64,000 bases of DNA. Source: a virus. Shown piece by piece: positions 29,212-60,524 of this stretch (positions within the stretch are counted from its first letter, which is position 1; every line of letters starts with the position of its first letter). The position numbers and the translations under genes are program-made. The stretch lies in IMG/VR virus record IMGVR_UViG_3300009545_000002, positions 9,388-73,387 of that record; one strand, 5' to 3'. The notes beneath the pieces are model-generated. The model was not told the DNA's origin and did not search any database. It was given only the letters and a program-made list of their open reading frames with translations.

Positions 29212-29288
29212 TGGTTGCGGCGGATGGATTTGAACCACCGACCTCCGGGTTATGAGCCCGGCGCGCTGCCGGACTGCGCTACGCCACG
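29212..29288 (-). tRNA. initiator tRNA-fMet (CAT)
   Basis: Reverse complement CGTGGCG...CCGGG-CTCATAA-CCCGG...GGTTCAAATCC...CGCCGCA-ACCA: C1:A72 mismatch, three G:C pairs in anticodon stem, encoded CCA. Confidence 0.93.
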
Positions 29289-38296: not shown

Positions 38297-39382
38297 TCAG
38301 CGCTTCTTCGGTCCGCGGCCCGACATCGCCACGCTGTCCGGCAGACGCTTGGCGGCCTCGCTCGCGTCGTAGTTGTAGTAGGTGTCGCGCAGCAGCCGGA
38401 TGTCCTTCGTGCCCACCGCCTTGGACAGCTCGATCACGTCCAGGAATCTGCACAGGCGCGTGCAGGCCTCGTGCTTCGTGTCGTGGAAGTGCAGGTCGAC
38501 GATGCCGGCCTGCTTCACCGCCTTGCGCCATAGCGCATCGCGCTGGCTGTCGTCGATGCCGACGATGTAGGGCTGGTCCGCGGGCATGGTCGCGAGCAGC
38601 TGCTCGATCAGGCGCCGCGCGCTGCCCGAGAGCGGCACGTTGCGGCTCGCGTCGACCGTGGCGCGGCCGCTCTTCGCGCCCTTGCGTCCGCCCTTCTCGA
38701 GTGCCGAGACGTGCACGTAGTCGTCTTCCGGGAAGAAGTCGATCGGGCGCAGGCGCAGCAGTTCGCCCGAGCGCATGCCGGTCTCCAGGCTGAGCAGGAA
38801 GCAGGCGCCGACGCGTGAGGTCAAGGTGCGCAGCTGCGGATCGAACTTGTAGCCGGTGGCGATGTTGATCGCCTCGACTTCCTTGTCGGTGAGCAGCGGC
38901 CGCTTGCGCGGCTTGCCCTTCGGCGGCCGGCGTGCGCCGTGGCAGGGGTTGACGTCGATCCAGCGGCGGTCCTTCACCGCGTAGGTGAACGCGCCGCTCA
39001 TCAGGTTCATCTCGCGGTTGACCGTCGCGTCGCTGACTTCCTCGCCGCGGCGCGCCATCCACTCGTTGATGTCGTGCGTCACAATGTCCGCGAGCCGCCG
39101 CTCCGCGAGCGGATCCAGACACCAATTGTCGATGCGTATCTTGTTCCACTTCGCCGAATCCGTCTTCAGCGCCACCGCATCGAGGTACGCCTCGAACAGC
39201 TGGCCGACCGTCACGCCGGCCGCCCTGGTCGGCGTCAGCTGGCCGATTTCCTTCTTCCGCTCCATCTTGTCCGCCCAGGCCTGGGCCTCGACCTGGGTGT
39301 CGAAGGTGGCGGTTTTTCGGGTGCCGCCCGGGATGCGGACGGTCACTCGAAAGGTGTCGCCGCGTGGGGTTATTGCTGCCAT
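38297..39382 (-). CDS. int: tyrosine integrase
   Basis: N-terminal KTATFDTQVEAQAWA; ATVNREMNLMS; LETGMRSGEL; HFHDTKHEA; TYY. Confidence 0.92.
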   Translation of the reverse strand: MAAITPRGDTFRVTVRIPGGTRKTATFDTQVEAQAWADKMERKKEIGQLTPTRAAGVTVGQLFEAYLDAVALKTDSAKWNKIRIDNWCLDPLAERRLADIVTHDINEWMARRGEEVSDATVNREMNLMSGAFTYAVKDRRWIDVNPCHGARRPPKGKPRKRPLLTDKEVEAINIATGYKFDPQLRTLTSRVGACFLLSLETGMRSGELLRLRPIDFFPEDDYVHVSALEKGGRKGAKSGRATVDASRNVPLSGSARRLIEQLLATMPADQPYIVGIDDSQRDALWRKAVKQAGIVDLHFHDTKHEACTRLCRFLDVIELSKAVGTKDIRLLRDTYYNYDASEAAKRLPDSVAMSGRGPKKR

Positions 39383-39549
39383 GGTGTCGTCCTTGGTGTC
39401 ATCGAGGGGCCTGCCCTGGCACCAGCGCCAACCTGGAAATCGTGGTGTCAGCGCTGGTGCCAGGGCTACCGACACTTTACCCGATTCCCCTGGGGCCAGG
39501 CCGGGCCCACTGGGGCCGGGTGACACCAAGACGGGCCGCACCGGACATG

Positions 39550-39739: not shown

Positions 39740-40054
39740 TTAGCTTTCGACCTTGTTCCTCGGGCGGCCGATTTTGGCCTTGGGGGACTCGTACTCGTGG
39801 GCCGAGATCCACGTCAGGATCGCCGAGCGCCGCCACCTTGGACGGCTCTTTCCCTTGCCCGTCCCGGTGTCCAGATGGATCGCTTTCGGGAAGGTCGGCG
39901 AGTGCGCAAAGTGCTCGGTCACCGAGCGCGGCTCGCAGTTGATCAGGGCGGCCACGTCGTCGGTGTTGAGCAGCGGGTCCTCGATTTCGGCCCGGCGCAG
40001 CTCCTTGGCGATGACCTTGCCGAGGGCTTCGATTTCACTCGCGTCCATGTTCAT
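39740..40054 (-). CDS. excisionase/AlpA-like HTH protein
   Basis: LLNTDDVAALI, FPKAI, RPRWRRSAILTW; adjacent to att and int. Confidence 0.75.
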   Translation of the reverse strand: MNMDASEIEALGKVIAKELRRAEIEDPLLNTDDVAALINCEPRSVTEHFAHSPTFPKAIHLDTGTGKGKSRPRWRRSAILTWISAHEYESPKAKIGRPRNKVES

Positions 40055-40467
40055 GCTTCCCCTTCGGTTGGGAAAAGGTCTGTCGTGCGCGCCTGCAGCT
40101 TCCGCGTCATGTACGCGCTGGTGATGTGATGTGGTTGATCGTAGGCCAGGTGATGCCGCTGGCACCAGGCCCGCAAATTCTCGGGATCGCAATGCTCTGG
40201 CACGTGATCCAGATGGGCGATCGTCAGCACGATGCGGACGATGCGCTCGTCCTTCTCGATCGACTCCGCCAGCTCGAAGTCGAAGGTGCCCGGCGTGCTC
40301 GGGTGCACGATCTGCTTGAACAGCCCATCGCGCCAGACACCGACGGCAAGGTGTCGCGCGCCGCATCCTTCCCATTCGCAGCGGTAGCCGGCGCGGCTCA
40401 TGATCTGCACGCGGACGTCTTGCCAGTCGGCGGGGTAGCGGGCTTTGTTCTCGGGCTTGATCGGCAT
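40051..40467 (-). CDS. HNH-like protein
   Basis: RYPADW, RAGYRCEWEGC, VLTIAHLDH.PEHCDPENLRAWCQRHH. Confidence 0.8.
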   Translation of the reverse strand: MPIKPENKARYPADWQDVRVQIMSRAGYRCEWEGCGARHLAVGVWRDGLFKQIVHPSTPGTFDFELAESIEKDERIVRIVLTIAHLDHVPEHCDPENLRAWCQRHHLAYDQPHHITSAYMTRKLQARTTDLFPTEGEA

Positions 40468-40476
40468 GGGCAGGTC

Positions 40477-40698
40477 TCAGGTCGGGTCGGTGTGGGTGAT
40501 GGTTCGTGAAGCCTTGAGCGCGGCGTGAATCTTGGTCAGCGCCTTGTCGTACTGCTCGAGCCAGTAGCGGGCATCGCCGTCGACGCGGCCCATTGCGTCA
40601 CTGTGGCTGCGCAGCAGGATCGCCCGGTCGTGCTGGATGACATCCTTCGCGGCGAGCAGGGCGCGCCTGATGGTGGCATGGGCGGGTCTGTCTTTCAT
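40477..40698 (-). CDS. hypothetical protein
   Basis: ATG directly follows a repeat-derived GAGAGCGCC RBS. Confidence 0.55.
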   Translation of the reverse strand: MKDRPAHATIRRALLAAKDVIQHDRAILLRSHSDAMGRVDGDARYWLEQYDKALTKIHAALKASRTITHTDPT

Positions 40699-41506
40699 GG
40701 CGCTCTCTCTTTACGGTGCTCTCGCGCAAGGTGGCTCGCTCAGCTGAGGTGGTGCTCTCTTGGGATATGGCTCGCACAGGATCTTTGGTGCTCTCGCGCA
40801 GGGGTGGCTCGCTCACTGGGAGGTGGTGCTCTCGCAGATCGTGGCTCGCTCGCTTGACATGGCGCTCTCGCCCTTTTGGCTCGCTCGTCTGTCATGGTTC
40901 TCTCCCGCAGGGGTGGCTCGCTCCAGGGGTAAGGTTCTCTCGGTGAACTGGGCTCGCTCTCAGCTGATGGTTCTCTCTGAGCCGCTGGCTCGCTCCGTGG
41001 GATTGGTGCTCTTCTTCGCTATGGCTCGCTCATTGTCATTGGGGCTCTCCGTACTCATGGCTCGCTCATGGGTTTAGGTGCTCTCGCGCTGAGTGGCTCG
41101 CTCATGGACTCGTGGTTCTCTCTGAGTTCCTGGCTCGCTCCCGATACGTGGTGCTCGTGGTGCTCTTCGAGACGATGGCTCGCTCATCACCAATGGTGCT
41201 CTCGGACAGAATGGCTCGCTCTTGCAGCATGGTTCTCTGCTGGTTGACGGCTCGCTCAACTCGTATGGTTCTCTCGCACTTTGTGGCTCGCTCATGAGCT
41301 CTGGCTCTCTTTGGGCGTCTGGCTCGCTCGTTGTAGATGGGTCTCTCCGGATGAATGGCTCGCTCCGTTCCATTGGTTCACTCACGCTTTCAGGCTCGCT
41401 CGGCAGGTAGGGTGCCCTCTGAAGACTTGGCTCGCTTGCGATCGATGGTGCTCTCGCTAACCGGGGCTCGCTCTTGCAACTTGGTGCTCTCTCACTCAAC
41501 GGCTCA
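40698..41506 (-). ncRNA. TIGR-like dual-repeat guide array 2 (about 22 units of 36 nt)
   Basis: Alternating GAGCGAGCCA and GAGAG(C/A)ACCA repeats on minus strand, separated by variable 7-9 nt spacers. Confidence 0.88.
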
Positions 41507-42346
41507 ATGCTTCGGCTCGCGCAGATGCGCGTGCCCCTGGATCGCGATCGGGTACGGCAGCGGCGGCTCTTTGCCGAAGTGCGTTCGGTACCAGGTCGCA
41601 TGAAAGTCAGACAGGAACTGCTTCACCGCGTAGCGCTGCGCCCGCATGTCGATCTGACCTGGTGGCAGCTTGCCGGCGGCGTAGTGCTTGTGCGCCTCCG
41701 TCGTCTTGGCCACGCGCGCGAGTCCGGCCGCCGCGGCCGCGGTGTTGCCCAGCGCCTCGTTGCGCTCGACTTCATAGGCCTTGCGCTGGCGATAGAGAGC
41801 GCCGTACACGCATCCGGGCTGGTTGCTGAATTTCAGGAAGGACTGCCCGACCTTCCAGCACAGTACCTTCAGCTTGGCATTGAAGGGACGCTTCGTCTTC
41901 TTCTCCCACTTCGTGGTCGGATCGAGTCCGGCGAAGCGCCAGATATGGCCGACCGTCGGCGCCTTCGTGATATCGATGTGGGCCAGCAGTCCGGCTGCGA
42001 TCACCGGCCCGATGCCGTAGACCTCGTGCAGCCATGGTCCCATCGCATGCTGGCGCGAATAGACGTCGAGCGCGCGCTTGATCTCGTTCTCCATCGTCTG
42101 CAGCTGCTTGAACAGCCAGTCGAGCATCGCATGTCCGTCGCCCTGATCGGCTGACTGGTCGATGCTGCGCATCTGCGCGGACGATGCGATGCGGTAATCC
42201 TGGAGCTGGTAGTAGGCGTCGACCATGAAGCGGATCTCTTGGCCCTTCAGCGTCTTTGCCGCCTGCAGCACGTCGCGCGCTGGCCTGGCAATGGACTCGA
42301 GGGAGATCGGTGCCTCGGGGATGCCTTTGTCTTCGTCGTCGCTCAT
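41504..42346 (-). CDS. TasA-like Nop-domain RNA-binding protein (IS110 C-terminal-like, no nuclease domain)
   Basis: Coiled coil (YYQLQDYRIA...LQTMENEIKRAL), then VYGIGPVIAAGLLA, WRFAGLDP, FNAKLK, YGALYRQRK, RAQRYAVKQFL; no DEDD RuvC or HNH domain; flanked by arrays. Confidence 0.85.
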   Translation of the reverse strand: MSDDEDKGIPEAPISLESIARPARDVLQAAKTLKGQEIRFMVDAYYQLQDYRIASSAQMRSIDQSADQGDGHAMLDWLFKQLQTMENEIKRALDVYSRQHAMGPWLHEVYGIGPVIAAGLLAHIDITKAPTVGHIWRFAGLDPTTKWEKKTKRPFNAKLKVLCWKVGQSFLKFSNQPGCVYGALYRQRKAYEVERNEALGNTAAAAAGLARVAKTTEAHKHYAAGKLPPGQIDMRAQRYAVKQFLSDFHATWYRTHFGKEPPLPYPIAIQGHAHLREPKH

Positions 42347-42394
42347 TGGGTGTGGTCCTCTCGTGGTGATTGGCTGCATGCCAGCCCGGCATGC

Positions 42395-42875
42395 TGGGTC
42401 GCTCTACTTCGATGGGTGCTCTCGGCGTGGGTGGCTCGCTCAGGTTCGCTGGTTCTCTCTCAGTGTTTGGCTCGCTCGTTCACTATGGTTCGCTCCGATC
42501 GATGGGCTCGCTCAACACTGATGGTCCACTCCCACTTGTTGGCTCGCTCGGGGATGCTGGTTCTCTCGACCGCAATGGCTCACTCACTGCCTCTGGTGCT
42601 CTCGGTAAGTCTGGCTCGCTCAGTCGCAATGGTCCGCTCGCGAAACCTGGCTCGCTCGTCACGCATGGTTCGCTCGTTGAATATGGCTCGCTCGCAATGC
42701 TTGGTCCTCTCGCTCTGTGCGGCTCGCTCCGCGCTCTCGGTGCTCTCCGGTCTGTTGGCTCGCTCGACCATCTTGGTGCTCTCAGCGAATACGGGCTCGC
42801 TCGTTGTGCATGGTTCCCTCACGGCTCGGTGGCTCGCTCCGGCTTCGTGGTTCTCTCGTGATTTTTGGCTCGCTA
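42395..42875 (-). ncRNA. TIGR-like dual-repeat guide array 1 (about 13 units of 36 nt)
   Basis: Same two alternating 10-nt repeats with variable 7-9 nt spacers. Confidence 0.88.
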
Positions 42876-43316
42876 CTGCGGCGCCGCCAGCAAGTTCGCG
42901 GTGCTGACGTGCTCGAGGACTGTCCGGCCGTTGGGCAGCAGGATCTGACCCAAGAACGCGCCTTCGAAAGTCAGGATGCCGACTTCCACCGCAGTGACCT
43001 GGCCCTTGATCCAGTCGCGCAGCACCGAGCAGACCGAGACCTGGGCCTGGTCCAGCGCGCGCCGCTCGTGCTCAATCTTCGTTCGCCGGTGTCGGCTCGG
43101 GTTGTACGGGTACTCCTTGAGCCAGGCCGCGGCGTATCCGCGGTAGCTGGCCTTCACGGTCACGTCGCGAGTGCGATAGGTGAACTGCACGATCAGCTCG
43201 CCGAGCTCGTTGTCCGTCATCGTGCCGAAGCGCGAGCAGCCGAAGCGCGTCAAGACCTTGCGGATCTCGTCGAGCGCGCCGGCGCCCGAGGTCGCGCCTT
43301 CATACGGCAGGGCCAT
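42873..43316 (-). CDS. hypothetical phage protein
   Basis: EIRKVLTRFGC, SVLRDWIKGQVTAVEVGILTFEGAFL; stop codon overlaps first array repeat. Confidence 0.7.
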   Translation of the reverse strand: MALPYEGATSGAGALDEIRKVLTRFGCSRFGTMTDNELGELIVQFTYRTRDVTVKASYRGYAAAWLKEYPYNPSRHRRTKIEHERRALDQAQVSVCSVLRDWIKGQVTAVEVGILTFEGAFLGQILLPNGRTVLEHVSTANLLAAPQ

Positions 43317-43331: not shown

Positions 43332-44042
43332 TCATGGCTGGCCGATGGCGCCGCTGGTGGTCGTGCCATGCCGCTCGACGAACTCGTCGGTCGCGTCCTT
43401 CGGCTTGCGCGACTTCTTGTCGGCGGGCTTGTTGATCGGCACGCCGTTGACCGCGCCAGAGCTCTCGGCAAACGGCCAGTTCGGATCGCCGCCGCTCTCT
43501 TCGCTGGGTGCGGAATCGAGCATCGCCTGGCTCTCGGCCGACGGCACCATCATCGCCTGCACTTCGTGCTTGAGCATCGCCGACAGCTTGCCGACCGCGC
43601 GTTCATCCGGCTGCGATCGTTGGACTCGCCAGGTCACTTTGACCGTGCCGCCCTGCTTGCACTCGAGCCTGAAGTTGTTCGCCTTGCAGTCGGTGATTTT
43701 CACGTTCGACTTGCCGGCCAGGCCGTACTCGAAGGTCAGCGTGCACCCTTCTTGATCACCGTGCCATTTCAGGACATCGAGCTCGGGGAAGCGCAGGTCG
43801 GGCGCGTCGTTCGGCTCCTCGAGCTCGAGCGGCACCTGGTCCGGGCGCGGCTGCGGCGTCTTCGACTTGAAGTAGAGCCAGGACTTCAGGCGCGGGTTGA
43901 ACAGCTTCAGCACGTCGTTGTGCATTTCCTTCGACAGCTTGATGTCGATGGCCGGCACCTTTTCGTCGCCGTGGTTCTCGTCGCGCAGGTTGATGTGCTC
44001 GATGATGACGGGCGTCAGATCGGGGAGGGCAAATCGGTTCAC
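43332..44042 (-). CDS. hypothetical phage protein
   Basis: AAAGGAG RBS plus GTG; NLRDENHGDEKVPAIDI, CKQGGTVKV. Confidence 0.7.
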   Translation of the reverse strand: MNRFALPDLTPVIIEHINLRDENHGDEKVPAIDIKLSKEMHNDVLKLFNPRLKSWLYFKSKTPQPRPDQVPLELEEPNDAPDLRFPELDVLKWHGDQEGCTLTFEYGLAGKSNVKITDCKANNFRLECKQGGTVKVTWRVQRSQPDERAVGKLSAMLKHEVQAMMVPSAESQAMLDSAPSEESGGDPNWPFAESSGAVNGVPINKPADKKSRKPKDATDEFVERHGTTTSGAIGQP

Positions 44043-44068: not shown

Positions 44069-45148
44069 TCAGACTTCTTGCAGGACGATGCGCTTCGACT
44101 CGATGAGGCCCCGGTTGACCTCGCCGAGCACTGCAATCCCGAGCTGACTGATTCCCTTGTTGGCCGACTGGGCCTTCGAGATTGCATCCATGAGCTTGTG
44201 CGCGCCGATCTTGCGCATGCGCGCATTGAGAGTCGGGTTCTCGACGCCGCCCTCGATGCGGCGATCGAGGTAGTCCAAGGCCTTGATCAGCTCGCCGAAG
44301 ATCGGCGCGCCGGGCGTGATGTCTTGCATGCAGCACAGCACGGCTTCGCAGCGCCGCATGTCGCGCTTCGCCATGCCGTAGACGTAGGCGATCGCGGCCA
44401 GCTGGTTGGCCCCCTTCGCTGCGCGAGCCACCACGTCGATGCCGAGTGCGCATAGGGCCTGGTCCAGCTGAATCGCGATCGGGTCTTCGCCTGTCACGAG
44501 CGCACGATATTTGTCGGAGGCATGCACGCCGCTGCGGTTGATGTTGATCGCCGCGAAGATGCGCGCTTCGTGGTTGATGCCCTGGCTCTCGAAGACAAGG
44601 CAGTTCAACTCGGTCAACTCGACTCGCCGCTGTGAAGCCATCCAGCGGTTTTGCCCGTCGACGATATAGAATTCGTCGCCGCGCTGCGCGACGGTCAGCG
44701 CGCCGAATGCAACCATGTCCAGCGCGGCGGCGATCTGATCGACTTTCGTCTGGCTGACGGTGTTGCGCTGGTAGGTCGTGCAGATGCTGAGCTTCGCCTT
44801 GTGCAAGCGCATCGGACGCAGTTCGCCGGTGATGGGGAGCCACTCGCGCTTGAGTGCATCGGCTGCCGAGTCGAGGGAGTGCTCAACGTAGGCCTCGTGC
44901 TGCGGCAAAGCGGGCGGTCCGGAGTCTGAAAGCTGCTGCACGTGCGGCAGCTTGAGTAGCCTCTGCCGGCGCCAGAACCCAGCAGCGCCAGACACCGTCG
45001 AGAGCCATTTGCCGAGTCCGGGATTCGAGGCCAGCATCTCTTTCAGGTAGTCGCGCGAGGTCCAGTGAGCGCGAGCGCCCTCGGGGATCCGCGCGCAGAC
45101 TCGGCGCAGTTCAGCTTCCGCTGTTTGTTGCCGGCGAGCTGTGTTCAT
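44069..45148 (-). CDS. ParB/Srx-like domain protein (DUF6551-like)
   Basis: YQRNTVSQTKV, FGALTVAQR, YIVDGQNRWMA, EARIFAAIN. Confidence 0.75.
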   Translation of the reverse strand: MNTARRQQTAEAELRRVCARIPEGARAHWTSRDYLKEMLASNPGLGKWLSTVSGAAGFWRRQRLLKLPHVQQLSDSGPPALPQHEAYVEHSLDSAADALKREWLPITGELRPMRLHKAKLSICTTYQRNTVSQTKVDQIAAALDMVAFGALTVAQRGDEFYIVDGQNRWMASQRRVELTELNCLVFESQGINHEARIFAAININRSGVHASDKYRALVTGEDPIAIQLDQALCALGIDVVARAAKGANQLAAIAYVYGMAKRDMRRCEAVLCCMQDITPGAPIFGELIKALDYLDRRIEGGVENPTLNARMRKIGAHKLMDAISKAQSANKGISQLGIAVLGEVNRGLIESKRIVLQEV

Positions 45149-55457: not shown

Positions 55458-55678
55458 CGCGCTTCTCCCGTGCCCGTGTCCGCGGTGTAGACGGTGCAGT
55501 CGAAACTGAAAACGCCCGTCACGGTGTATTCCACGACCGCGTCGAACTCCTCGCTCGCGTGGCCGGTGCGATCTTCCGGCGCGTTCCGGAGGCGCGTCCG
55601 CGCGTTGATGTGGAGGATGCAATTTTCCAACGCGCTGCGCCGGTTGCACTCTTCGATCGCCTGGTCCAGATTTTCCAT
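55454..55678 (-). CDS. hypothetical protein (cassette 2)
   Basis: AGGAG RBS; MENLDQAIEEC. Confidence 0.55.
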   Translation of the reverse strand: MENLDQAIEECNRRSALENCILHINARTRLRNAPEDRTGHASEEFDAVVEYTVTGVFSFDCTVYTADTGTGEAR

Positions 55679-55942
55679 TTTCAACTCCTGGGGACTGGAG
55701 GCCGCTTCCGCGGCCGGTTACTGGTTAAACGCGGGTCCTGCGTTGAATACGCAGCTTCCAGATCCGCCAGGTTGCATTAACCCAGTGCGGATACGGTGCA
55801 AACAAGGCCAGATTGACCAGTTTCTGCGGCTTACTCCGAAGCATATTGGCGTCCTTCTGCGGTTCCGGGTTTGGCGACTACCAAACCAACACATTTATTA
55901 TATCCCGAATATTCGAGATACTCCGATTACCGGAGAAAAAAA

Positions 55943-56810
55943 TATGCCCTGGGCCACGCCGACCGTCTGCCGCGCGCCAGGTTGTCCGGCCCGCGTCAAA
56001 ACGCCCGGCTTCTGCGACGATCACCGGAAGGCCGCACACCGCGCCTACAACGCCGATCGCTCCGCGTTGAATGTGGAGAGTGATCGGGCCTACCGAACGG
56101 CCCGCTGGAGGGCGCTACGCGAGTCGGTTCTGCTCGAGGAGCCGCTGTGCCGGAGCTGCGCGGCCGATGGGAAGGTGGAGGTTGCCGTGCTGGTCGACCA
56201 CATCCAGCCCGTCAAGGCCGGCGGCGAGTTCTGGGACCGCGACAACCTCCAGCCGCTCTGCAACCTCTGCCATGAGCGCAAGAGCCACGCGGAGGGTTCG
56301 CGCTTCTTCAAGGTGGGCCCCAGGTCGGCCCGCTCAGCTGCGGATCTGGTGGAGGAGGCGCTTCGCGGCGCTCTCATGCCTGGCCAGTCGCTGCCTGCCT
56401 GGTTGCCGGCGCCGGCTGTGCCGGTAGAAGTCATCTGTGGTCCGATCGGCTCCGGTCGCGCTGCCCACGTCGCGCAGCACGCCGGCGCTGCCGACCTGGT
56501 GCTCGACATCGACGTCCTCGCGGCGCGGCTGACCGGCAAGCCGATCTTCCACGCCACGCTGCAGGAGATCTCCCGCGCTGTTCACGCCAGGAACAGCCTG
56601 CTCGCTCTGAAGCACGTCCCCTGGCCGAAAGCCTGGCTGATTGTCTCGGCCGGCTCGCCTGCCGCGCGGGAGTTCTGGAGGGACAAGATGGGCTCGATCA
56701 CCGTCCTGCCCTTCGACCGTCACGACTGCTTCGACCGCGTCCGGCGCGACACTCGCCGCCCGGCTGCCTCGCTCGCCGGCATCGAACGCGCGATCCTCGA
56801 TTGGCACTGA
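55943..56810 (+). CDS. HNH endonuclease fused to a P-loop-like domain
   Basis: CRAPGC...FCDDH; EPLCRSC, VDHIQP, NLQPLCNLCHERKS; then VICGPIGSGRA, VLDID. Confidence 0.85.
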
Positions 56811-59335: not shown

Positions 59336-59640
59336 GACGTCGCTCCTTGCTCGGCCGGATCCTGCGGGCAGATGTCGAGCACGGCGTTCTTCACCAGGGC
59401 GCCGCGCGGGCTCACATGCCAGGTAGCGAGGGCCGTTTCCGTGTGGTCGCCGCCGTTCAGCATGCTCGCGAGGGTCGCCTTGTCGGTCGGGATCTCGACC
59501 AGGTCGACATAGATGTCGCGCCATTGATGGTTGGGGTAGGCCCTGACATGCCGCCGCGCTTCGTCGAACGTCGTCTTGTACGCCGGCCTGCTTCGGATGT
59601 ACTCGTTCGTGACCTTGTAGAACTGCAGACGCGCGCTCAT
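59332..59640 (-). CDS. hypothetical protein
   Basis: ATGA-coupled to ParB gene. Confidence 0.6.
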   Translation of the reverse strand: MSARLQFYKVTNEYIRSRPAYKTTFDEARRHVRAYPNHQWRDIYVDLVEIPTDKATLASMLNGGDHTETALATWHVSPRGALVKNAVLDICPQDPAEQGATS

Positions 59641-60524
59641 AGCAGGGCTCCTTGCGCTGCCGAGTGCTGCAGCGCCTTCTCCATGTGGCCGAGGGCGGTT
59701 CGGATCATCCCGAGCTGCTGCACGATCGTGCTGGCGCGGTTCGGGTTGATCTTCTTGAGGATCACGACCTCGTTGTCGTGGATCCCGTCGTTGCAGGCGC
59801 CGATCAGGCGCTCGATCATTCGCTCGAACTTCGTGAGCGTGGCCAGTTCCTCGTCGGTCGGCGGTGGCGGGAGCTCGAACATCGAGGCTTGCTGCGCTGC
59901 AGCGACCAGGCCATCCGCCGCGGCGCGCAGCTTCGCGTAGGTGTCGCAGCGGCCGGCACGGATCATCTCGAAGAGGACGCGTTGGGCGCCAATCTCGAGG
60001 CGGGATAACTCGAAGGCCTGCGACGGTGCGATCGCACCGCGCTCGAGCAGGTCCTGATAGTCGGGGCGCAGGCGCATCAGCTGCAGCCGATCGGTCACCC
60101 GGTGCGGCTGCTTGATGCCGAGCCGCTGGGCAAGTGTAACCGGGGTGTAACCGGCTTCGATCATGCGCTGAAAGGCGCGGGCTTCTTCGAGCGGCGTGAT
60201 GTCGACGCGCTGGAGGTTCTCCACGATCGCGTTGATCGCGACCGCATCGTCGGTCATCTCGATGACGTTGCACTCGACTTCGGCCAGGCCGGCGAGCTCG
60301 TGGGCGCGCCAGCGGCGCTCGCCGGCGACGATCAGGTAGCGAGCGTCAGCGGCTGGCGTGAAGCGGCCGCCGGCGCCGCGCAGCGGGCTCGTGCGGCGCA
60401 CGGTGATCGGCTGGAGCAGGCCGTTCTGCTTGATCGACTCGGCCAGTTCGGCGAGTGCGACGGGTTCAAACCGCTTGCGCGGCTGGTCCGGGTTGGGCTG
60501 GATCTGAGTGATTGCGATCTTCAT
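59637..60524 (-). CDS. parB: ParB/Spo0J-family protein
   Basis: PNPDQPRKRF, LAESIKQNGLLQPITVR, IVAGERRWRA, ENLQRVDITPLEEA, HTH. Confidence 0.92.
   Translation of the reverse strand: MKIAITQIQPNPDQPRKRFEPVALAELAESIKQNGLLQPITVRRTSPLRGAGGRFTPAADARYLIVAGERRWRAHELAGLAEVECNVIEMTDDAVAINAIVENLQRVDITPLEEARAFQRMIEAGYTPVTLAQRLGIKQPHRVTDRLQLMRLRPDYQDLLERGAIAPSQAFELSRLEIGAQRVLFEMIRAGRCDTYAKLRAAADGLVAAAQQASMFELPPPPTDEELATLTKFERMIERLIGACNDGIHDNEVVILKKINPNRASTIVQQLGMIRTALGHMEKALQHSAAQGALL

Follow-up and report, generated by a model that had tools for sequence, protein, structure and literature searches.

A predicted dual-repeat TIGR-TasA system with 35 guide units in a temperate phage from root-zone soil

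The DNA analysed here, a stretch of 64,000 nucleotides (nt) referred to below as the window, comprises bases 9388-73387 of the 73,387-bp virus record IMGVR_UViG_3300009545_000002, which has direct terminal repeats and is rated complete. The record represents a temperate phage from root-zone soil, with a G+C content of 66.5% and a siphovirus-like gene layout by PHROG matches. On its minus strand two arrays of short alternating repeats flank a gene for a 280-residue protein, and the locus is predicted to be a TIGR-TasA system. According to Faure et al. (2025, PMC12045711), TasA is the solo-Nop form of the Tas proteins, and dual-repeat arrays consist of two alternating 8-12-nt repeats that yield 36-nt tigRNAs. 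A preliminary description made from the letters of the window had placed two dual-repeat arrays with a 36-nt period around the gene; we found the coordinates and anatomy as given there (13 and 22 units), and its estimate of about 35 guides agrees with an in-register parse that counts 35 units. The features of the locus are as follows.

42395..42875, minus strand: upstream array U, 13 units
42347..42394, minus strand: leader of 48 nt from array U to the tasA start, as read from the sequence
41504..42346, minus strand: tasA, encoding a solo-Nop Tas protein of 280 amino acids
40698..41509, minus strand: downstream array D, 22 units
41149..41166, minus strand: 9-nt tandem partial duplication of the loop repeat in unit D10

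Parsing of the minus strand revealed two 10-nt repeats, GAGCGAGCCA and GAGAG[C/A]ACCA, that strictly alternate at 18-nt steps to give a unit of 36 nt, numbered U1-U13 (42875..42395) and D1-D22 (41509..40698) in the reading direction. The window contains 24 exact copies of GAGCGAGCCA, against 0.50 expected by chance, and none of 100 shuffles reached 24; of these copies, 23 are on the minus strand within 40732..42839. GAGAGMACCA occurs 15 times (chance 0.32), always on the minus strand and inside the arrays. The 70 spacers are 8 nt long in 61 cases, 9 nt in seven and 7 nt in one, the remaining one being the spacer of D10 that holds the partial duplication; D10 is the sole unit to deviate by more than 1 nt from 36 nt. 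Comparison of all pairs showed the spacers to be essentially unique.

Both repeats start with GAG, at the place of the 5' box D motif, and end with CCA, the 3' box C motif, so that the two motifs are common to edge and loop repeats here. Following the rules in PMC12045711, by which arrays start and end with edge repeats, GAGCGAGCCA was assigned as the edge repeat, since it starts and ends both arrays (truncated at three of the four ends) and its positions 3:8 and 4:7 can pair, and GAGAG[C/A]ACCA as the loop repeat, since its centre is A-rich and variable. The edge repeat that opens array U overlaps the TAG stop of a 147-residue open reading frame (ORF) and for this reason has a different first base; the array closes with the edge copy GAGCGACCCA (42404..42395). 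At the end of array D a truncated edge copy (GAGCG) leads straight into the start codon, ATG (40698), of a 73-residue ORF. The leader contains degenerate repeat remnants and a loop-like copy, GAGAGGACCA (42362..42353), in which GAGG, 10 nt before the tasA ATG, may be a ribosome-binding site.

Translation of the repeats, which the preliminary description had raised as a counter-explanation, was also considered. Long ORFs cross the arrays on both strands, but the 1-nt length changes in eight spacers shift the frame, and no ORF reads the repeats in a single frame throughout, which argues against translation of the arrays. CRISPR-Cas systems have one repeat of 25-36 nt with spacers of similar size, plus cas genes. 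A CRISPR-Cas assignment was rejected on the basis of the two alternating 10-nt repeats and 8-nt spacers, together with the absence of a PADLOC family for TasA or five neighbours and of an Rfam match at E ≤ 1.

The closest published layout is that of Flavonifractor plautii FpTIGR (PMC12045711), compared here by its locus description. Both loci have a solo-Nop Tas, two alternating short repeats, a 36-nt unit and arrays on both sides on the tas strand; also common to them are a CCA end on each of the two repeats, two paired positions in the edge repeat and an A-rich centre in the loop repeat. The phage locus differs in its 8-nt spacers (9 nt in FpTIGR; SpTIGR also has 16 nt in all), in repeats that start with GAG rather than UG, in arrays wedged between ORFs without a terminator-like site, and in having 35 units, where 'most often 5 to 15' are described.

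The 280-residue product of 41504..42346 is identical to a protein already called in a public collection, and an alternative start at 42379 gives 291 residues. Searches with NCBIfam returned NF052498 (TIGR_Tas_endo equivalog) with an E-value of 3.8e-62 and 210 bits against a cut-off of 100, over profile positions 1-215 of 215, upholding the earlier TIGR-Tas identification; TasA is the sole gene of this type in the 73-kb genome. The Nop profile match occupies residues 49-265 of the 291-residue ORF, spanning 217 residues and thus leaving no room for another domain. No RuvC, DEDD or HNH Pfam family was detected at E ≤ 10, in keeping with the earlier statement that the protein has neither a DEDD RuvC nor an HNH domain, and the solo-Nop definition in PMC12045711 fits, so that the TasA label stands.

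Among solved chains, the best sequence matches were TasR 9mty (single-sequence E 2.4e-12) and TasH 21kl, followed by IS621 and ISCro4; a profile of 35 homologues matched TasR 9mty at 8e-18 and TasH 21kl at 2.8e-14. An AlphaFold model built with the 35 homologues (mean predicted local distance difference test score, pLDDT, 87.1; predicted template modelling score 0.83) has a helical core, a hairpin formed by two helical stretches (residues 35-63 and 73-99) and, at the C-terminus, a loop modelled with low confidence, consistent with the coiled coil and Nop motifs noted before. A Foldseek search of the PDB with this model placed TasH and TasR chains in all top 10 positions (E 3.5e-7 to 3.1e-6, template modelling (TM) score up to 0.73), then ISCro4 and IS621. 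The comparison with Tas and IS110 profiles and structures that had been suggested thus returned Tas matches first and IS110-family recombinases next. The predicted regions of TasA are as follows.

Residues ~35-99: coiled-coil hairpin
Residues ~100-257: Nop core
C-terminal end: flexible loop with Tyr265 and His272

Prediction of a TasA homodimer gave a score of 0.45, with 0.00 for the best control, and an interface at residues 22-92, in the coiled coil; the runs share at least 37% of contacts, with a partner pLDDT of at least 76. A score of 0.45 was attained by 20 of 30 proteins solved as homo-pairs and by 1 of 23 solved as single chains, although Tas dimers have already been solved, and the result may therefore reflect likeness rather than independent proof.

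In SpTasH from Salicola phage CGphi29 (21kl, 9w03), the guide-processing residues are Y289 and H296 (PMC13421893), which sit in the sequence PLY-VQEKLG-H. The TasA counterpart is LPY265-PIAIQG-H272, with an equal 7-residue spacing (Tyr-x6-Gly-His). The H272 position is His in 35 of 35 homologues, and the Y265 position is Tyr in 31 and Phe in four. The loop has a pLDDT of 51-60, as expected for a flexible loop. SpTasH and TasA are further alike in the Nop core with coiled coil (Foldseek E 3.5e-7, TM 0.73; profile 2.8e-14), in being phage-borne and in having two 8-nt spacers, whereas SpTasH has an N-terminal HNH domain and cuts DNA, and in TasA the coiled coil is preceded by only some 35 residues of low conservation. 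TaTasR (9mty; Faure et al. 2025), the best solved-chain match, aligns at the C-terminal GH motif and differs in its N-terminal RuvC nuclease, 9-nt spacers and UG...CCA repeats. The stem-loop TasA proteins MbTasA and PlTasA, as described in 2026 preprints, are likewise nuclease-free and bind DNA by tandem spacers, and MbTasA represses transcription; their guide units are hairpins and they have no Tyr/His loop, while the phage locus is dual-repeat and has kept the loop.

TasA belongs to a large conserved family of the same length, with 5099 proteins at E ≤ 1e-3 in one search and 2972 cluster representatives in another. Many cluster representatives (e.g. P0121, P0125 and P0139) align to TasA in two separate blocks, 40-100 extra residues being inserted behind about position 150 of TasA, and a few are 689-783 residues long; inserted or fused forms therefore exist in the Tas family.

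A two-pattern scan of IMG/VR yielded 434 encoded relatives, and 80 loci were kept. Chains of GAGNNNNCCA at 18-nt steps lie on the tas strand in 77 of the 80 loci and on the opposite strand in two. The loci differ in the consensus edge repeat by compensatory changes (GAGCGAGCCA, GAACGAGTCA, GATTGAAACA, GAGTGAACCC), with GAGAGMACCA retained as the loop repeat. In a count over 1003 distinct units, positions 3:8 of the edge repeat are G:C in 678, A:T in 231, G:T in 34 and T:A in 26, and edge positions 4:7 are C:G in 813, T:A in 134 and T:G in 19, the 4:7 figure being partly circular, as the edge class was picked by 4:7 pairing. The corresponding loop positions 4:7 are A/A in 672 units and paired in 7.9%. 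When the class was picked by lower sequence entropy, with pairing ignored, 4:7 was paired in 73% versus 20%, and A:T at 3:8 was found in 176 versus 25. These compensatory changes support a predicted two-base-pair helix within the edge repeat. In 27 loci (e.g. L007, L017 and L030) the edge repeat is GAACGAGTCA, of the form GAA...TCA with A:T at the box pair, and the loop repeat keeps GAG...CCA. Covariation in this clade is therefore within the edge repeat and not between repeats, and in each of these arrays the box C/D letters differ from one repeat to the other.

The locus also occurs in four further metagenome runs from roots or rhizosphere, which carry the labels 2017 and 2025; their contigs cover parts of the gene and of both arrays and show 0 differences, pieces from one run, for example, covering 41096..41828, 41919..42534 and 42525..42952. 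None of the pieces extends over the entire stretch, and some of the studies may stem from a single campaign; within these limits the arrays are without turnover. None of the 35 units is shared with the 971 units of other loci, and four single spacers are shared with relatives (1.65 in shuffles).

These results bear on the view that there is no working guide system here, and that the locus is the remnant of an IS110-type transposase with a flanking minisatellite, or a translated repeat. Such labels do appear: PHROGs assigns the protein to phrog_4285 ('transposase') at 1.4e-52, Pfam PF02371 (Transposase_20) gives a partial match (profile 4-45 of 87, E 1.2e-4), and long ORFs run through the arrays on both strands. 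The IS110 model NF033542, however, scores 26.3 bits against a cut-off of 140 over positions 191-264 of 343 only, and PF01548 gave no match; an IS110-family transposase, which would have an N-terminal DEDD (RuvC-like) domain and a complete C-terminal Transposase_20 domain, was rejected on these grounds. IS621 (8wt6) and ISCro4 (9t56) have a Nop-like domain for RNA binding in common with TasA (profile E-values 9.5e-5 and 9.4e-4; ranks 12-17 in Foldseek), while TasA lacks a DEDD/RuvC-like domain and transposon ends, leaves the C-terminal part of the IS110 model unmatched and is flanked by guide arrays. With an intact ORF from a conserved same-length family, repeats conserved at the level of RNA pairing, spacers that break the reading frame and differ among loci, and arrays identical in the four other runs, a remnant or translated repeat is extremely improbable.

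The locus is probably a dual-repeat TIGR-TasA system of a temperate siphovirus-like phage whose processed guides direct non-cutting DNA binding. As far as sequence analysis can go, its membership in the family, as a genuine and intact dual-repeat locus with 35 guides, is firm; from its relatives we infer expression, processing, binding and targets. The arrays would probably be transcribed with the minus-strand early operon, because they lie on the tasA strand, flush between operon ORFs. By analogy with SpTasH, TasA probably cuts the precursor inside each edge repeat via Tyr265/His272, which would release 35 tigRNAs of 36 nt, each with half an edge repeat, 8-nt spacer A, the loop repeat, 8-nt spacer B and half an edge repeat. 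A TasA dimer held by the coiled coil would bind one tigRNA, and spacers A and B would pair with opposite strands of adjacent 8-bp half-sites in a 16-bp site. For TasR, 8-nt 3' overhangs are reported (PMC12045711), from which it was deduced that a site has spacer A first and then the reverse complement of spacer B. The complex would bind without cutting, since there is no nuclease domain, and block transcription or another DNA transaction; its targets would lie outside the phage genome, in the host or in rival mobile elements. Among relatives, the dual-repeat FpTasA binds 36-nt RNAs (PMC12045711), and a stem-loop TasA has been shown to bind its target DNA and, without cutting it, to repress genes on the chromosome as well as reporter genes (10.64898/2026.09.09.750476).

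Several observations weigh against such a guide system. All 35 units were searched in six arrangements, with the two half-sites in either order and a gap of 0-2 between them, in the complete 73,387-bp genome after masking of the arrays. This search, which the preliminary description had proposed in the form of spacer A joined to the reverse complement of spacer B in both orders, gave no exact site in the phage genome. Two near matches were found at one mismatch (mean 0.27 and maximum 2 in 30 shuffles) and six at two mismatches (mean 6.1), and self-targeting was rejected in view of the lack of exact sites and of any excess of near matches. A search of 0.82 Mb of relatives' loci plus the phage genome with 1003 true units gave no exact match in the deduced arrangement and one in the other, where 1072 wrongly paired control units gave 0 and 3; cross-targeting among relatives was rejected, there being no enrichment over these controls. 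A promoter and terminator consensus scan detected no terminator-like site after array D, unlike the typical published layout, and none of the runs listed as holding the locus is an RNA run. Repression has been reported for stem-loop TasA only (10.64898/2026.09.09.750476), and a dual-repeat TasA fused to activators is reported to give only weak activation in human cells (10.64898/2026.07.30.739400). Finally, the repeats start with GAG and not with the UG of TasR arrays, although divergence of the 5' motif is allowed if common to both repeats (PMC12045711). Taken singly, spacers occur 190 times in the phage genome, versus 152 ± 22 in shuffles.

Two spacer pairs stand out within the arrays. The sole exact reverse-complement pair is U10 spacer B, TCAGTGTT, and U12 spacer A, AACACTGA (42522..42531 and 42460..42467), and about 3% of shuffles give one; the sole direct pair matching at 8 of 9 positions is D17A and D20A (6% of shuffles). 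Each is at the edge of chance. If the U10B/U12A pair were real, two guides would tile one 24-bp site. The best match in the genome to either 24-nt tile has seven mismatches. The two central 16-mers of the tile have 2 and 28 exact matches in IMG/VR, the 28 being a few groups of near-identical A+T-rich contigs, and at none of these 16-mer matches do the flanks complete the tile. The tiling idea was rejected as chance. Spacers D17A and D20A also have a motif in common, CCCCTGCG, part of which is present in D16B as well (40805..40941); it may be the trace of a unit duplication or a repeated target motif.

The neighbouring genes of the operon are transcribed in the order ParB-like gene, 236-residue ORF, 147-residue ORF, array U, tasA, array D, 73-residue ORF, HNH gene and integrase.

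44069..45148, minus strand: ParB-like DUF6551 protein of 359 amino acids, at the head of the minus-strand operon (Pfam DUF6551, 4.5e-10; phrog_1033, 1e-7)
43332..44042, minus strand: ORF of 236 amino acids, start codon chosen in this analysis
42873..43316, minus strand: ORF of 147 amino acids (p147), directly upstream of array U
40477..40698, minus strand: ORF of 73 amino acids (p73), directly downstream of array D
40051..40467, minus strand: HNH endonuclease of 138 amino acids (phrog_1571, E 5.5e-24), two genes downstream of tasA and 230 nt beyond array D
38297..39541, minus strand: integrase (PHROG match), ~1.2 kb downstream on the tasA strand

Analysis of the 80 related loci by tblastn revealed the ParB-like, 147-residue, 73-residue, HNH and integrase genes in none of them, and the 236-residue ORF in two. 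Upstream same-strand ORFs in the relatives (115 of 117 selected, two from a duplicate locus having been dropped and ten near-duplicate loci left out before selection) include no ParB or DUF6551 family by Pfam and are mostly replication and recombination genes. As its neighbours are not conserved, tasA with its arrays forms a self-contained cassette, and there is no support for a tasParB or split-TasH arrangement.

The fit of the arrays within this operon raises the alternative that they act mainly in cis, TasA cuts at the 37 edge repeats severing the operon messenger RNA and so tuning tasA and the downstream genes (73-residue ORF, HNH, integrase), with DNA targeting secondary or absent. Array ends overlap the TAG of the 147-residue ORF, the TGA of tasA and the ATG of the 73-residue ORF; repeat-like GAGAGG and GAGAG lie at ribosome-binding distance from the ATGs of tasA and the 73-residue ORF; no DNA target was found in the searches made; and no promoter-like or terminator-like site was found near the arrays, though a scan with an E. 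coli-type promoter consensus says little for a phage with 66.5% G+C. A cleavage site, however, would not call for 35 spacer pairs that differ from one another, are mostly unique and keep to a length of 8 nt, and the genes that would be tuned do not accompany tasA in its relatives. We regard the cis account as unlikely.

A second alternative is that TasA guides a nuclease in trans, for example the 138-residue HNH protein, cutting like a split TasH. This protein is encoded on the same strand and in the same operon, shortly past array D, and TasH is an HNH-Nop fusion (PMC12045711). The 138-residue HNH nevertheless matches no TasH chain or any other PDB chain at E ≤ 0.9, and it has no relative beside tasA in the 80 loci. 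Free-standing HNH genes are also common among phages, and a split TasH is very unlikely. In one subclade of relatives (L005, L012, L020, L028 and L030), the tasA strand carries, ~1-2 kb upstream of tasA, a conserved HNH ORF of 191-215 residues (PF01844), for which BLAST shows no relationship to the 138-residue HNH.

A role in DNA architecture rather than repression, raised as speculation by Faure et al. (PMC12045711), would make TasA an RNA-guided DNA-bending aid to the integrase or the ParB-like protein. Both genes lie near tasA in the same orientation, the integrase downstream and the ParB-like gene upstream, and tasParB-tasA operons with 10-nt repeats have been reported (PMC12045711). Yet no guide matches the phage genome, the attP side included, between the ParB-like gene and tasA lie an array and two unrelated ORFs, and the relatives have neither gene beside tasA nor a ParB or DUF6551 family among their upstream ORFs, which leaves such a role quite improbable.

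Returning to guided, non-cutting DNA binding, we tentatively propose, as one possible function, that the fixed set of 35 nuclease-free guides serves as a multiplex silencer by which a rhizosphere phage acts on host or rival-element DNA and not on its own, with spacers that may be directed at the promoters or intergenic regions, richer in A+T, of a host with high G+C. The spacers have a G+C content of 54%, versus 66% for the genome, and over 67 loci spacer G+C tracks flank G+C weakly (r 0.61, slope 0.46). The lower spacer G+C would fit A+T-richer targets but could equally reflect an RNA constraint. If the proposal is true, TIGR-TasA, with arrays identical between the 2017 and 2025 samples, would be a regulatory programme passed on by inheritance and not an adaptive memory.

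The description of TIGR-Tas dates from 2025. The earlier suggestion of repression or competition matches what a 2026 preprint reports for stem-loop, not dual-repeat, TasA (10.64898/2026.09.09.750476), and would apply here by analogy. The 2026 preprint counts 20,096 tas loci and 4,126 arrays of the dual-repeat type, and according to both papers natural Tas targets are mostly unknown because the loci sit on fragments. With the family already published and thousands of loci catalogued, the present locus adds no new principle. What it offers is a complete 73-kb temperate phage with 35 guides, unchanged in several root and rhizosphere metagenomes, which could serve a search for natural targets once the host is known, and a locus that could serve to test dual-repeat TasA for repression in bacteria. 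The covariation of the edge repeat and the unconserved neighbours show tasA plus arrays as a self-contained mobile module.

As to the host, the closest named relatives of tail protein J are 36-39% identical and come from various Proteobacteria, and relatives of TasA occur in 41 bacterial genome loci from many phyla, the best at 57% identity. A search of a phage collection gave no DNA or protein match at E ≤ 1e-5, and a search of the collection with single proteins of the locus found nothing.

In the wider genome, PHROG matches place the head, portal, tape-measure and tail genes on the plus strand, with an endolysin after them; a repressor-like gene is also on the plus strand. The TasA locus lies inside a minus-strand block with the integrase, HNH endonuclease, RecT and exonuclease VIII. 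A second, canonical ParB (ParB_N and HTH_ParB) is encoded at 59637..60524 on the minus strand, and a tRNA-Met (CAT) gene at 29212..29288, also on the minus strand, has the lysis genes on one side and the minus-strand early block on the other. An ORF of 438 amino acids at 55494..56807 on the plus strand matches both HNH endonuclease families and a small terminase family (phrog_4581, 4.6e-36; phrog_144, 3.8e-35), and may be a fusion or an over-long ORF call.

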